The notes below the pieces were generated by a model. That model was not told where the DNA came from, made no database searches, and was given only the letters and a program-made list of their open reading frames with translations. A program made the translations under genes and the position numbers. A stretch of 64,000 bases of DNA from Rhodocyclaceae bacterium. Lineage in GTDB: Bacteria > Pseudomonadota > Gammaproteobacteria > Burkholderiales > Rhodocyclaceae. The stretch is from assembly GCA_016721505.1 (NCBI GenBank), contig JADKHX010000002.1, positions 37,126 to 101,125 on the forward strand, read 5' to 3'. Positions 5,883-51,552 of the stretch are shown in pieces. Every line of letters starts with the position of its first letter. Within the stretch, counting starts at the first letter, position 1.

Positions 5883-5897
5883 CTTGACGGAAAATCG

Positions 5898-5910
5898 CCA
5901 GTTGGTGCTG
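5898..5910 (-). repeat. 13-nt core motif copy in the rsmD/ftsY spacer
   Basis: CCAGTTGGTGCTG, the reverse complement of CAGCACCAACTGG. Confidence 0.5.
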
Positions 5911-6089
5911 ATGAAACAAACACAAAAACAGAAACAACCATGCAACAAGGCGGTCGCGCACAAGACGCGCTCTGCGCCGTTGCGTGTGCTGACACGCCGT
6001 TGAACGTGGCTGGATTTGCCTGATACACAGTTCGCCTCTGTTAAAATTTTGCAGCCGCCTATCTTAGCGACTTCTGCCTGCACTCTTCT

Positions 6090-9768: not shown

Positions 9769-9863
9769 AACGGCGGCGAAGCAGGGGTTTCGCAAAGCAT
9801 TGCTCTGTGCCTGCGTAGCGGGTAGTCCGTACACAGCCGACACTGCACACCAGCACCAACTAG
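9769..9863 (+). repeat. 95-nt long-form repeat element, copy A
   Basis: AACGGCGGCGAAGCAGGGGTTTCGCAAAGCATTGCTCTGTGCC...CACCAGCACCAACTAG. Aligns by eye over its full length with copies at 11109 and 50968. Ends in the 13-nt core. Confidence 0.8.
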
Positions 9864-9888
9864 TGGAGGATAGCGAGTTGTCCCGCGC

Positions 9889-11108: not shown

Positions 11109-11203
11109 AACGGTGGCGAATCAGGGATTTCGCAAAGCATTGCTTTGCGCTTGTGTAGCGGTTCGGCTGCACTAAGTCGAGGCTCCACCCCGGCACCAAT
11201 TGG
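11109..11203 (+). repeat. 95-nt long-form repeat element, copy B
   Basis: AACGGTGGCGAATCAGGGATTTCGCAAAGCATTGCTTTGCGC...CGGCACCAATTGG. Same orientation as copy A. Contains the perfect 9-bp inverted repeat CGCAAAGCA-T-TGCTTTGCG. Confidence 0.8.
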
Positions 11204-11269
11204 CGAAATTTGCGTCGAAGTCGTTTTATTCGAGCTTTCACCATCACCCGTCGGGCATACACTTTTACG

Positions 11270-33796: not shown

Positions 33797-33814
33797 CGTC
33801 AGTTGGTGCTGACG
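33797..33814 (-). repeat. core motif hairpin copy inside the GT2 insert
   Basis: CGTCAGTTGGTGCTGACG: 6-bp stem with a TTGGTG loop. It supplies the TGA that ends the N-terminal frame. Confidence 0.6.
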
Positions 33815-33841
33815 CGGAGTCTCGGCCCTTTGGCCGGGGGC

Positions 33842-33862
33842 GGGGGGGGGGGGGGGGGGGGG
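33842..33862 (+). repeat. 21-nt G homopolymer (poly-C on the coding strand)
   Basis: Counted directly. Preceded by GGGGGC and followed by CTTTGCGGGGCCCCCCCCTCCCC. Confidence 0.95.
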
Positions 33863-34332
33863 CTTTGCGGGGCCCCCCCCTCCCCGCTTTTAGTGACTTC
33901 ATTAGCGAGCTGCGCGCTTACCCGCTCATCCGCATCTACACACAGCACCCAATCATGCATCGCTTGTTCAACCGCGAATTGCTTTTGTGGCCCGAAGCCG
34001 CGCCAATGCGTCTGTATTACCCGCGCATCGAGGCTCGTCGCTAACTCAACCGTTGCATCTTCGCTACCCGAATCGACCACCAAAATCTCGTCGCAAAATG
34101 CAACACTGGCCAAGCATGCAGCGAGTTCGTTCGCGGCGTTTTTGGTGATGATGACTGCAGAAATGCGGCGCGCTACCGGTTCAACCAATGAGGCCATTTG
34201 GCGCTCCTAAAAATTGTGCAATCCAAAGCCGACTATGAGGCAGGCCGTGAGTGGGTCACGGCCTGATTATCGCGCCCGACTCGCGGTTTGGTTGCGGCGC
34301 ATAGCGTGCGGAATTCTTGGATAATCTTCGTC

Positions 34333-35286: not shown

Positions 35287-36572
35287 TGGCGCGATTTATT
35301 TACAGCCTTTGTGTCGTATTGCTACTACCGGTGGCAGTAATTTATTTGCTCTGGCGAGCGCGCAAGCAACCAGAATATTTGAAACATTGGGGTGAGAGAT
35401 TTGGTTTTTTCGGCCACCTTTCGCGGCCCGCAAATGGGCTTTTGATTTGGCTGCACGCGGTGTCCGTCGGTGAGACGCGCGCGGCACAACCGTTGATTTC
35501 TGCGTTGCGTGAGCGCTATCCCGATCATCAAATATTGATTACCCACATGACACCCACAGGGCGCGCTACGTCGCAGGAATTGTTTGGCGATTCAATTGCA
35601 CAGTGTTATCTGCCCTACGACACAACCTGGGCAATGCAGCGCTTCTTGCGGCATTTCTCACCACGATTTGGCCTCGTTATGGAAACGGAACTGTGGCCGA
35701 ACTTAGTTGCCGCCTGCGCGCAACGTGATGTGCCGTTGATGTTGGTGAATGCGCGCCTGTCTGAAAAATCGGCGGCGGGCTACGCGAAACTTCCTGCGCT
35801 GGCAAAAGAAGCGCTGCAAGGTTTGCACGCTATTGGGGCACAATCGCAAGACGATGCAGATCGACTAACTGCGTTGGGCGCGCGCTCGCCGAGCGTCGTC
35901 GGCAATATCAAATTTGATATCGATGCGCCGGAAAACCAGATCGCGCTAGGTAAAAATTTTCGTACGCAAATCAGACAACGCCAAGTATTTCTTGCGGCTA
36001 GCACCCGCGAGGGCGAGGAAGCCTTGTTGTTGGATGCATGGTCGCGCAACGCGCCAGTTGGCGCTGGTGATACGCTTTTGCATAGCCCGCCGTTGCTCAT
36101 CATCGTTCCACGCCATCCACAGCGCTTCAACGATGTCGCGGCACTGGTTCAAGCACATGATTTGTGCCTGCAACGACGTAGCGAAAACAACGCCATCGAA
36201 GCCGGAACCGACGTGCTGCTAGGTGATTCAATGGGCGAAATGTTCGCTTGGCACACGCTCGCTGACCTTGCTTTTATTGGCGGCAGCTTGCTAGATTTTG
36301 GTAGCCAGAATTTGATTGAAGCCTGCGCGGTTGGCACGCCAGTGTTACTCGGACCGTCGACCTACAATTTTGCTGACGCCGCGTTTGAGGCGCAGGCTTG
36401 TGGTGCGGCGTTAGCGATTATTGATGCGGATGATTTGGTGCAAAAGGCGCGGGCTCTTTTGCACGATGCTGCGGCGCTTGCCCGCATGTCAGAAGCCGGA
36501 TTGCGCTTTGCTCAACAGCATCGTGGTGCAACGGCGCGGACGATGGAACTGATCGCCCGCGTCGTTAATTGA
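35286..36572 (+). CDS. waaA: 3-deoxy-D-manno-octulosonic acid (Kdo) transferase
   Basis: WLHAVSVGETRAAQPL motif. ATG 35286 overlaps the waaC stop (TGATG). Confidence 0.92.
   Translation: MARFIYSLCVVLLLPVAVIYLLWRARKQPEYLKHWGERFGFFGHLSRPANGLLIWLHAVSVGETRAAQPLISALRERYPDHQILITHMTPTGRATSQELFGDSIAQCYLPYDTTWAMQRFLRHFSPRFGLVMETELWPNLVAACAQRDVPLMLVNARLSEKSAAGYAKLPALAKEALQGLHAIGAQSQDDADRLTALGARSPSVVGNIKFDIDAPENQIALGKNFRTQIRQRQVFLAASTREGEEALLLDAWSRNAPVGAGDTLLHSPPLLIIVPRHPQRFNDVAALVQAHDLCLQRRSENNAIEAGTDVLLGDSMGEMFAWHTLADLAFIGGSLLDFGSQNLIEACAVGTPVLLGPSTYNFADAAFEAQACGAALAIIDADDLVQKARALLHDAAALARMSEAGLRFAQQHRGATARTMELIARVVN
36052..36075 (-). repeat. degenerate motif copy inside waaA
   Basis: CGCCAGTTGGCGCTGGTGATACGC, read as APVGAGDTL. 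One core mismatch. Confidence 0.4.
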
Positions 36573-49491: not shown

Positions 49492-50469
49492 ATGGACTCA
49501 CCTTACAGCCCGTTGGAATTTTCATTGTTAAACGACTGGCAGCGTGATTTTCCGCTGGTGTCGAATCCGTTCGCGGAGATTGCGGCGTCAGTTGGTGCTG
49601 ACGACACGCTGTCAGATAAGGTTCTAAGTACGTTGAACCGCTTGGTGGCGCGCGGCGCAATCAGCCGCATCGGAGCCGTGTTTGCGCCGCGTCGGGTAGG
49701 CATCGGCGCACTCGCCGCGGTCGCTGCACCTGCTGAAAAAATCGAAGCGATTGCGGCACAAATTAACGCGCACGCCACGGTCAATCACAACTACCAGCGC
49801 GAACATCTTTACAACCTCTGGTTCGTCGTCACGGCGCCCGACAAAGCCGCCTTGGACGCGACCCTAACGCAGATAGAAATGGAAACCGGCTGCACAGTTA
49901 TTTCCATGCCATTGGCCGAAGAGTTTCATATTGATTTGGCATTCGACATGCAGTCGGGACATAGCCCGATTCAGCACCAGCGTTCCTGCGCGGCTATCAC
50001 TCGAGACCTGGATACCGACGAGCGTCGGCTGGCAGCGCAATTGCAAGATGGCTTGACGCTTTGCGCCACGCCCTACGCAGAACTTGGGCAGCGCGCCGGC
50101 ATGAGCGAAGCGCAAGTGCTCAATCATTTGCGACGCTGGCAAGACGAGGGATTGATCAAGCGTTTTGGCATTGTCGTGCGACATCACGAAATGGGTTATC
50201 GCTCAAATGCGATGGTGGTGTTTGATATTGCTGACGACAACGCATCCACCATTGGCACGGCCTTGGCTAGCGTGCCGGGCGTGACTTTGTGTTATCGGCG
50301 CGAGCGTTGCCTGCCGGCGTGGCCGCACAATATTTACTGCATGGTGCATGGTCGAAGTCGCGATGAAGTCTTCCCGATTGTCGAACGTTTGGCGGCCATC
50401 GCCGGTATTAAGCCGACGGTGTTGTTCTCCGTGCGACGTTTCAAACAATGTGGTGCAAGATATTTCTGA
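49492..50469 (+). CDS. nirD: fused NirD-NirL siroheme decarboxylase subunits
   Basis: 325 aa with two tandem AsnC/Lrp-like modules (LNDWQRDFPL... and ERRLAAQLQDGLTL...). Confidence 0.85.
   Translation: MDSPYSPLEFSLLNDWQRDFPLVSNPFAEIAASVGADDTLSDKVLSTLNRLVARGAISRIGAVFAPRRVGIGALAAVAAPAEKIEAIAAQINAHATVNHNYQREHLYNLWFVVTAPDKAALDATLTQIEMETGCTVISMPLAEEFHIDLAFDMQSGHSPIQHQRSCAAITRDLDTDERRLAAQLQDGLTLCATPYAELGQRAGMSEAQVLNHLRRWQDEGLIKRFGIVVRHHEMGYRSNAMVVFDIADDNASTIGTALASVPGVTLCYRRERCLPAWPHNIYCMVHGRSRDEVFPIVERLAAIAGIKPTVLFSVRRFKQCGARYF
49586..49613 (-). repeat. 27-nt motif copy inside nirDL
   Basis: CGTCAGTTGGTGCTGACGACACGCTGTC, read as SVGADDTLS. Confidence 0.7.
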
Positions 50470-50957
50470 TGAATGCCATGCGCGCCTCAACTGATGCTTC
50501 GATTCGCCCGTCACCAGATGAAATGGATCGCGCCATCATTAACAAAATGCAAGGCGATTTCCCTTTGCTTGACGAGCCGTATCGCGCCGTTGCCGACAGC
50601 TTGGGAATCAGCGAAAGCGAATTACTTGGACGCTTGCAAGGCATGCTTGATAAGCGAATATTGACCCGCTTCGGGCCGATGTTTCAAGTTGAACGCATGG
50701 GTGGCGCTTTTGTGCTCGCGGCGATGACAGTGCCGGAAGAACGATTTGATGAAGTCGCCACGCAAGTCAATTCATTGGCCGAAGTGGCGCACAACTACCG
50801 CCGCGAACATGCGATGAATATGTGGTTCGTGTTGGCCACAGAGACTCGCGCCGGGATTGCCGAGGTCATCGCGCGAATAGAAGCGATGACGGCATTGCCG
50901 GTGTTTGCTTTTCCGAAAGAGCGTGAGTATTTCGTCGAGATGAAACTCCATGCTTGA
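50469..50957 (+). CDS. nirG: siroheme decarboxylase subunit NirG
   Basis: ATG 50469 overlaps the nirDL stop. Has the MDRAIINKMQGDFPL module. Confidence 0.85.
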   Translation: MNAMRASTDASIRPSPDEMDRAIINKMQGDFPLLDEPYRAVADSLGISESELLGRLQGMLDKRILTRFGPMFQVERMGGAFVLAAMTVPEERFDEVATQVNSLAEVAHNYRREHAMNMWFVLATETRAGIAEVIARIEAMTALPVFAFPKEREYFVEMKLHA

Positions 50958-51552
50958 GATGGCTCATAACAGAGGCGAAACAGGGAATTCGCAAAGCACT
51001 GCTTTGCGCCTGTGTAGCGGGTCGGCTGTACTAAGCCGACACTGCACGTCAGCACCAACTGGCAAATTCGGGCTAGACGAACGCGACCTCGATCGCGAAA
51101 TCATTCTCGCCACGCAAGGCGGCTTGCCGCTGGTATCACGTCCCTATCATTTCATCGCCGAGCAACTTGGGGTCGATGCAGGGCAAGTGCAATCACGGCT
51201 TGCCGCCATGCTGGCCGATGGTCGCATTCGCCGCATCGGTGCAGTGCCGAATCACTACGCCATCGGCTACACGGCCAACGGCATGAGTGTCTGGGATGTT
51301 GAAGATGCCCTGATCGACGAATTAGGCGCGCAAGTCGGTGCGCTAAGTTTTGTGACGCATTGCTATCGACGTCCGCGCCGTTTGCCAGCGTGGCCTTACA
51401 ACTTGTTTGCGATGGTGCACGGCGCTACGCGGGATGAGGTGCAAGCCGATGTCACAAAAATTGCTGCCTTGTTAGGTGACGCTTGCCGTGGCCACGACGT
51501 TCTCTATAGCAGCCGGATACTGAAGAAAACCGGACTGCGTATCGGGGGTTAA
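50950..51552 (+). CDS. nirH: siroheme decarboxylase subunit NirH (5' end runs through a repeat element)
   Basis: The conserved NirH sequence begins about LDERDLDREIILATQGGLPLVSRPY (from ~51073). The only in-frame ATGs (50950, 50959) lie upstream of the 95-nt repeat copy C, which stays open in frame. Confidence 0.8.
   Translation: MLEMAHNRGETGNSQSTALRLCSGSAVLSRHCTSAPTGKFGLDERDLDREIILATQGGLPLVSRPYHFIAEQLGVDAGQVQSRLAAMLADGRIRRIGAVPNHYAIGYTANGMSVWDVEDALIDELGAQVGALSFVTHCYRRPRRLPAWPYNLFAMVHGATRDEVQADVTKIAALLGDACRGHDVLYSSRILKKTGLRIGG
50968..51062 (+). repeat. 95-nt long-form repeat element, copy C
   Basis: AACAGAGGCGAAACAGGGAATTCGCAAAGCACTGCTTTGCGCC...GTCAGCACCAACTGG. Contains the perfect palindrome CGCAAAGCA-C-TGCTTTGCG and the hairpin GTCGGC-(8 nt)-GCCGAC. 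Confidence 0.8.

Follow-up and report, generated by a model that had tools for sequence, protein, structure and literature searches.

The nirH gene in a 64,000-nucleotide stretch of the genome of a denitrifying Rhodocyclaceae bacterium (GenBank contig JADKHX010000002.1, positions 37,126 to 101,125; referred to here as the window, with coordinates counted from its first letter) holds, near the start of its open frame, a copy of a dispersed, hairpin-forming repeat. On the basis of sequence comparisons across relatives and across the genome, NirH is likely to be made from the ATG at 50950, coupled to the preceding gene nirG, and to bear at its N terminus a tail of about 32 residues that the element encodes and that is predicted to be disordered. 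The nirH frame (50950 to 51552, + strand) encodes 200 aa and, as a sequence-only reading of the window had claimed, its likeliest start (ATG, 50950 to 50952, within ATGCTTGA) overlaps the stop (TGA, 50955 to 50957) of nirG, which the open reading frame list and the sequence place at 50469 to 50957 on the + strand as a gene for a siroheme decarboxylase subunit. The overlap suggests translational coupling of nirH to nirG. The same arrangement, ATGC(T/C)T(G/A)A, is kept in five close relatives and in the genomes G004 and G015. That reading had extended such overlaps to all junctions of the nir operon; this proved too broad, as nirDL and nirG share a TGATG overlap at 50467 to 50471, whereas nirF and nirDL are separated by an 11-nt gap.

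The predicted translation begins MLEMAHNRGETGNSQSTALRLCSGSAVLSRHCTSAPTGKFGLDERDLDREIILATQGGLPL and runs from MLEMAHN through about 32 repeat-encoded residues to KFGLDERDLDREIILATQGGLPL, with codons 7 to 39 made up of the repeat. Recognizable NirH sequence follows only after it: homology starts at residue 48 (51091), and the first two residues of this core, D48 and R49 (codons at 51091 to 51096), are invariant in 35 aligned orthologues, which places any real start upstream of 51091. The stretch between the repeat and the core (codons 39 to 47; AAA TTC GGG CTA GAC GAA CGC GAC CTC) has no ATG, GTG, or TTG, and the sequence-only reading was right on both counts. Taken together with the invariance of D48 and R49, this means that a start downstream of the element would need a noncanonical codon. 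A second ATG lies at 50959, and the sole canonical alternative start 3' of it is an in-frame TTG at codon 19 (51004 to 51006), within the element.

Family alignments place the nirH copy at 50968 to 51064/66 (97 to 99 nt). The sequence-only reading had described a 95-nt repeat at 50968 to 51062; the repeat is real, with three copies in the window at 77 to 83% identity and about 90 blastn matches in the 3.5-Mb genome, but its 3' bound needed to be moved. The exact 95-mer has no match in shuffled sequence, and no Rfam family was retrieved on 50800 to 51300 at an E value of ≤1. Relative to orthologues without the repeat, the net insert is 96 nt, or 32 codons. On the + strand, the copy consists of a 5' arm (50968 to 50974; AACAGAG here versus the family consensus AACGGCG), a 69-nt segment with two hairpins (50975 to 51043), and a 3' arm (51044 to 51064; GCACGT-CAGCACCAACTGGCA) read as ...TSAPTG. 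The perfect palindrome and hairpins that had been predicted in the operon mRNA are borne out: the first hairpin is the palindrome CGCAAAGCA-C-TGCTTTGCG at 50990 to 51008, the second occupies 51019 to 51042, and the computed folding energy over 116 nt is -48.3 kcal/mol (z = -4.1). We considered an assembly artefact and rejected it, since the copies are diverged, lie in unique contexts, and are found again at orthologous positions of independent assemblies and of metagenome contigs.

The protein itself is a siroheme decarboxylase of the NirDLGH/AhbAB type, with a helix-turn-helix and an AsnC-type C-terminal domain, encoded in a nirS-nirF-nirDL-G-H-J-N cluster. The representative of its protein cluster matched the Pfam families PF22451 and PF17805, and comparison with solved structures of NirDL (PDB 4ch7; E = 3e-34) and AhbA/B (4czd_B; E = 1e-22) aligned it from residue 48/49. 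In an AlphaFold2 model built on the 35-orthologue alignment, residues 1 to 40 have a pLDDT (predicted local distance difference test) score of 41 to 46 and no secondary structure, and the fold starts at residue 44 with the first helix (residues 44 to 55); the extension is hence predicted to be disordered. The core is 82 to 98% identical within the genus, a clear sign of purifying selection. NirH proteins of more than 25 other relatives, mostly Rhodocyclaceae, start with M and 5 to 15 residues, followed directly by LDRRL and lacking any repeat, and in these the nirH start mostly overlaps or abuts the nirG stop. The orthologue alignment that the sequence-only reading had proposed as a check thus finds the extension unique to the genus among the orthologues read. 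tblastn matches that extended to query residues 3 to 20 in Zoogloea, Accumulibacter, and others turned out to be out-of-frame read-through of nirG, and an extension common to these other genomes was accordingly rejected. The closest named relative is a Rhodocyclaceae metagenome-assembled genome (MAG) from Danish wastewater.

A protein search for close relatives returned sequences of 82 to 98% identity with varied N-terminal lengths, and the underlying DNA provides a natural series at this very site. Two of them, P0003 and P0004, have only a forward 28-nt word, AACGGCGT(N5)CAGCACCAACTGG(C/T)G; in G003 and P0002, the P0003 word holds a 39-nt hairpin in its center; in G000, the source genome studied here, and in P0001, the word holds the 69-nt two-hairpin insert. 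The word is reversed in P0005 (read SPVGADTTPS) and also in P0006, where it holds a 39-nt insert of another kind. All these states are open in frame from the nirG-overlapping ATG, as are the relatives without the word. In G015, which belongs to another genus, a palindrome resembling repetitive extragenic palindromic (REP) elements, CCCTCTCCCGCGGGCGGGAGAGGG, is set in frame within the N-terminal region of NirH (G015:C1:903721-903744); it has 48 copies in G015, 12 in G000, and none in G003. NirH is evidently permissive at its N-terminal end.

This series reflects the composite anatomy of the whole family, which we analyzed in G000. The long element is a 28-nt anchor, AACGGCGTGTCACCAGCACCAACTGGCG, with the 69-nt two-hairpin cargo (cargo A) lodged in its variable center. 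The anchor is bipartite (ACGGCGT, N5, CAGCACCAACTG), with positions 5 to 11 and 17 to 27 more than 96% conserved and five variable bases between them. Roughly 500 to 700 anchors are present per genome, on both strands and in spacers as well as genes. In G000, the 3' arm has 706 sites within two mismatches, and a 15-mer of the anchor has 450 copies within one mismatch (238 forward and 212 reverse) versus 0 for the same word read backwards. The sites comprise 488 plain 28-nt anchors, 48 with the 69-nt cargo (+69), 34 with 23 nt (+23), 13 with 36 nt (+36), a few with 57/58 nt (+57/58), and about 110 that were left unclassified. Over 84 distinct copies, the helices of cargo A show double compensatory changes, e.g., GC 39, AT 19, and GT 18 at positions 13/46, AT 61 and GC 16 at 26/38, and GC 55 and CG 22 at 54/73. 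A hairpin formed by the anchor itself was rejected because its six candidate stem positions pair as expected under independence; the anchor is a sequence word. The anchors are also underdispersed, with a 5th percentile of 711 nt and a median of 3,990 nt between neighbors versus about 256 and 3,470 nt for a Poisson process, and only 15 pairs lie less than 300 nt apart.

The family lacks the traits of miniature inverted-repeat transposable elements that we looked for. Its ends, AACGGCG and AACTGGCG, are direct rather than inverted, with no terminal inverted repeats, and no excess of identical flanking 2- to 5-mers indicative of target site duplication was found at 20 boundary offsets over the 488 short and 48 long copies. 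Among candidate mobilizers, a REP-associated tyrosine transposase (RAYT) or other IS200-type enzyme is unsupported: the anchors nearest to the two Y1_Tnp genes are about 0.7 to 1.2 kb away, and G002 and G004 have genes of this type as well. A recombinase of the IS110 family was rejected, as none is encoded in G000, G001, or G003. Our search for a mobilizer thus found none.

The bearing of this family on nirH comes from its behavior inside other genes. We called genes by a home-made procedure, combining the longest open reading frame with codon log-odds, which yielded 2,999 genes covering 86% of the genome; 346 of the 706 anchor sites (49%) fall within them, and 221 of these lie deep inside. 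The in-gene copies use three reading frames and both orientations with a strong bias, 145 being read as PVGAGDTP-like and 94 as NGVSPAPTG-like peptides. Long copies lie in frame within leuS, gatB, lysA, dnaX, mfd, priA, mutL, icmF, and topoisomerase genes, topA among them, as well as in genes for NadD, Hsp33, and others, and the predicted element peptide in LysA, GatB, and LeuS is exemplified by SPAGAGVESRPR. Orthologue alignments, including those of GatB and LysA, identify the copies as true insertions. In LysA, comparison with PDB 3n2b shows that an 8-residue loop is replaced by 35 residues, with the conserved GPVCESGD resuming next in the same frame, so that the enzyme can exist only if the element is translated.

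The cargo forms differ in where they occur. Deep within called genes we found 148 of the 488 plain anchors and 20 of the 48 +69 copies but none of the 34 +23 copies, which sit just past gene ends. This cargo does not make up a whole number of codons, and its absence from the interior of genes points to selection at the level of translation. Consistently, the modal length is exact in 26 of 27 long copies deep in genes versus 32 of 40 intergenic ones. Regardless of location, three of the six frames of the family consensus lack stops, so that compatibility with a reading frame belongs to the element as such. As an observation apart, many of the long in-gene copies are in genome maintenance genes (mfd, priA, the 5' end of uvrC, mutL, dnaX, topA, and a parC/gyrA-like gene), which, uncorrected for gene length, recalls the bias reported for neisserial DNA uptake sequences (DUSs).

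We propose that ribosomes would start at ATG 50950 and read straight through the composite repeat, so that a tail of about 32 residues would precede the winged-helix domain of NirH. The cargo would have lodged in the variable center of a preexisting anchor, with cargos coming and going over time, and inside genes only stop-free states that preserve the frame would survive, tolerated as insertions in loops or tails. The sequence-only reading had left the choice between an element-encoded extension and an unusual start; the former is favored because of the lack of a downstream start, the six open states at the site, the long copies deep in other genes, the exclusion of cargos that break the triplet register, and the restriction of the extension to the genus. 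We infer that the tail is actually made and that siroheme decarboxylase function is unaffected by it, and the mode of spread of anchors and cargos is likewise read from these patterns. Several points weigh against this interpretation. Only a weak Shine-Dalgarno sequence (GAGA) precedes 50950, and a structure of about -48 kcal/mol begins 10 to 20 nt past the start, where it could impede initiation. The frame conservation over six variants is strong yet indirect, as the site is near the gene start, and the home-made gene calls make the counts of copies at gene edges soft.

The in-frame TTG at 51004 is a further such point, since it could yield a shorter tail. A start within the element, either at this TTG, giving a tail of about 20 residues, or at ATG 50959, would entail only partial translation of the repeat, and hairpins 5' of the TTG might stall or unload the coupled ribosomes. 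Yet no purine-rich, Shine-Dalgarno-like sequence precedes the TTG (CAAAGCACTGCT), the codon is buried within the 9-bp stem of the palindrome, and G003 and P0003 to P0006 have no equivalent internal start there while remaining open from the overlapping ATG, all of which makes initiation inside the element unlikely. If the element were instead an untranslated intercistronic spacer, NirH would have to start from a noncanonical codon after it. Rare bacterial starts at ATT and ATC exist, and both codons are present in nirH, but only at codons 51 and 52, past the invariant D48-R49 and inside helix 1; codons 39 to 47 offer no near-cognate start with a Shine-Dalgarno sequence. Such a spacer would also leave the maintenance of frame and freedom from stops in six independent states without reason and would give the 23-nt cargo no cause to avoid genes, and we regard it as very improbable.

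The conserved structure of the repeat, with its compensatory changes, invites two further explanations. One is that the element acts mainly on the operon mRNA as an attenuator, processing site, or stabilizer, with translation incidental or nirH down-tuned or dying; many copies, including all +23 forms, indeed lie directly after gene ends. Nonetheless, both orientations and all contexts preserve the structure, a pattern suited to an intrinsic trait of the element and not to nir regulation; purifying selection clearly acts on the nirH core within the genus (see above); and the cargo at the site differs between species or is missing, so that no cargo-specific nir function is conserved. A regulatory role of this kind is thus quite unlikely. 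The other is that the compact structure marks an element removed before translation, by an intron-like mechanism or programmed bypass. Removal would render the stop-free and triplet constraints unnecessary, but only stop-free frames and only cargos with multiples of three nucleotides are found deep in genes; in-gene copies occur in both orientations, and the absence of an Rfam match also argues against removal. Excision is, in our estimation, barely credible. Translation from ATG 50950 through the repeat would imply that the annotated 200-aa NirH is probably right, its odd N terminus not being a miscalled start, and that heme d1 synthesis need not be impaired by the extension. The predicted tryptic peptides of the element region are GETGNSQSTALR, LCSGSAVLSR, and HCTSAPTGK.

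Comparison across species separates the histories of the two components. Three of the four species in the genus have the anchor 15-mer described above, dialect 1, in abundance (450, 452, and 317 copies), and it is at background level in the 37 other genomes searched. A second dialect, CGCCGTCTCGCCAGCGCCGAC, is found in the fourth species, G002 (301 copies), and in four genomes of other Rhodocyclaceae genera, namely G004 (695 copies), G005 (395 copies), G013 (629 copies), and G023 (140 copies). The two in-gene sites that could be aligned (window 1533 and 25981) have dialect 2 in G002 and dialect 1 in G000, G001, and G003, with no indel, and the GatB and LysA proteins of outgroups have VGAGDTA-type words where the genus has the anchor. 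The cargos vary at the same sites. A short 28-nt anchor in nirDL (49586 to 49613, - strand), in frame with the peptide SVGADDTLS, has no cargo in G000 but has cargo A, in frame there too, in G003; the anchor at window 17487 is empty in G000 and holds the 23-nt cargo in G001 and G003; and in LysA and GatB cargo A is present in G000, with the anchor empty in G003. By these alignments, anchors are old and stable at orthologous sites, and cargos are dynamic within them. The pattern fits an anchor that is an uptake-sequence-like or factor-driven word, serving also as a landing pad, better than it fits a classical transposon. Like an uptake sequence, the anchor is highly overrepresented on either strand, within genes as well as spacers; it is conserved at the DNA level and divided into lineage dialects at orthologous sites without indels; its per-position identity is equal in every frame and in spacers, by a measure that is biased by detection. 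A comEC gene is present in all five genomes checked and does not discriminate between these hypotheses.

Several known systems share some of these features. The Rickettsia palindromic elements, which the sequence-only reading had invoked, are hairpin repeats found in frame in many genes (Ogata et al. 2000, as reviewed in PMC10969869), with 44 integrations in genes of R. conorii (PMC10969869). The parallel holds for behavior: both are short, dispersed, hairpin-forming repeats in frame in unrelated conserved genes whose proteins remain intact, and both add a family-specific peptide that is tolerated at loops and termini. It fails for membership, since the host here is a free-living or wastewater-type Rhodocyclaceae rather than Rickettsia, and the anatomy is composite, with a nonpalindromic 28-nt anchor and exchangeable cargo used in three frames and both orientations; the scale also differs, at 346 in-gene anchor sites versus the 44 of R. 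conorii. With REP sequences and REPINs, the family shares hundreds of short copies, hairpins (here in the cargo layer), and long persistence. REPs, however, are almost wholly extragenic, with 14 of 1,067 REP 16-mers overlapping genes in SBW25 (PMC3116915), versus 49% of anchor sites in genes here. The anchor further lacks a palindromic core, no RAYT gene flanked by anchors was found, and Y1 transposase genes also occur in a genome lacking dialect 1.

The anchor alone resembles the uptake signal sequences (USSs) of Pasteurellaceae and the DUS dialects of Neisseriaceae. The likeness, which concerns sequence pattern rather than uptake bias or a receptor, comprises the hundreds of copies equally distributed on the strands, the in-gene frame bias toward bland peptides, DNA-level conservation in any frame, the lack of indels at orthologous sites, the lineage dialects there, and spacing that is more even than random. 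The anchor differs in the greater length and two-part build of its conserved word (7 + 12 nt across 28), in its lower density of about one per 5 to 7 kb, and in its lodging of hairpin cargos. Small dispersed repeats of cyanobacteria are said to be units of about 21 to 27 nt that occupy spacers and genes, can nest within one another, and have no transposase, terminal inverted repeat, or target duplication. These features are the same here, whereas the phylum and the sequences are different; to our knowledge, neither dialects at orthologous sites nor a fixed bipartite anchor with a cargo slot has been described for them. Our literature search found no paper containing the anchor words and none joining the term "DNA uptake sequence" with Rhodocyclaceae.

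On this basis, we put forward the following as a tentative proposal. A clade of Rhodocyclaceae might possess a previously undescribed two-tier system of repeats, in which a bipartite 28-nt dialect word, maintained at orthologous positions by a genome-wide drive, is joined by hairpin cargos (15, 23, 36, 39, 57, and 69 nt) that home into and leave its center, the two jointly writing peptide families into hundreds of proteins, including enzymes of replication, repair, and translation, with nirH as one case. The drive may be uptake-sequence-like or may come from a coevolving DNA-binding or recombination factor. In-frame tolerance of repeats, deemed a specialty of Rickettsia, is here seen at greater scale, in a betaproteobacterium from the environment whose group includes wastewater denitrifiers and phosphate accumulators. 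The roughly 350 in-gene copies constitute a natural experiment on the protein sites that accept 9 to 32 extra residues, and the division into anchor and cargo, together with dialects that cross genera, offers a tractable system for the transposase-free spread of tiny repeats. It also raises the question of uptake-type signals outside Neisseriaceae and Pasteurellaceae. Annotation is affected too: to gene callers and MAG pipelines, such inserts will look like odd frames or like variants between strains.

The window contains further variants of the composite. Two long copies, A (9769 to 9865) and B (11109 to 11205), flank a gene for a Rieske oxygenase; copy B is present in G001 as well, and G003 has a plain terminator-like hairpin at the position of copy A, which indicates that the two were not gained as a unit. 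At 5892 to 6004, a T-rich cargo of about 58 nt (GAAACAAACACAAAAACAGAAACAACC) occupies a reversed anchor, and the unit of about 105 nt is multicopy in G001 and G003, with dozens of matches at 80 to 94%. An in-gene anchor at 36052 to 36095 has a 15-nt central insert relative to G001, a tiny frame-preserving cargo. A reversed long copy at 33797 to 33890, where G001 has a plain anchor, has an interior with a run of about 22 G followed by a C-rich segment (GGGGGCGGGGGGGGGGGGGGGGGGGGGGCTTTGCGGGGCCCCCCCC); this poly-G interior looks like a sequencing or assembly artefact. Elsewhere in G000, around 56928 to 57500 of contig C8, a frame of 1,426 codons of the FAD-linked oxidase/Fe-S oxidoreductase type closes with over 150 codons for glycine, written in poly-G DNA, probably another artefact.

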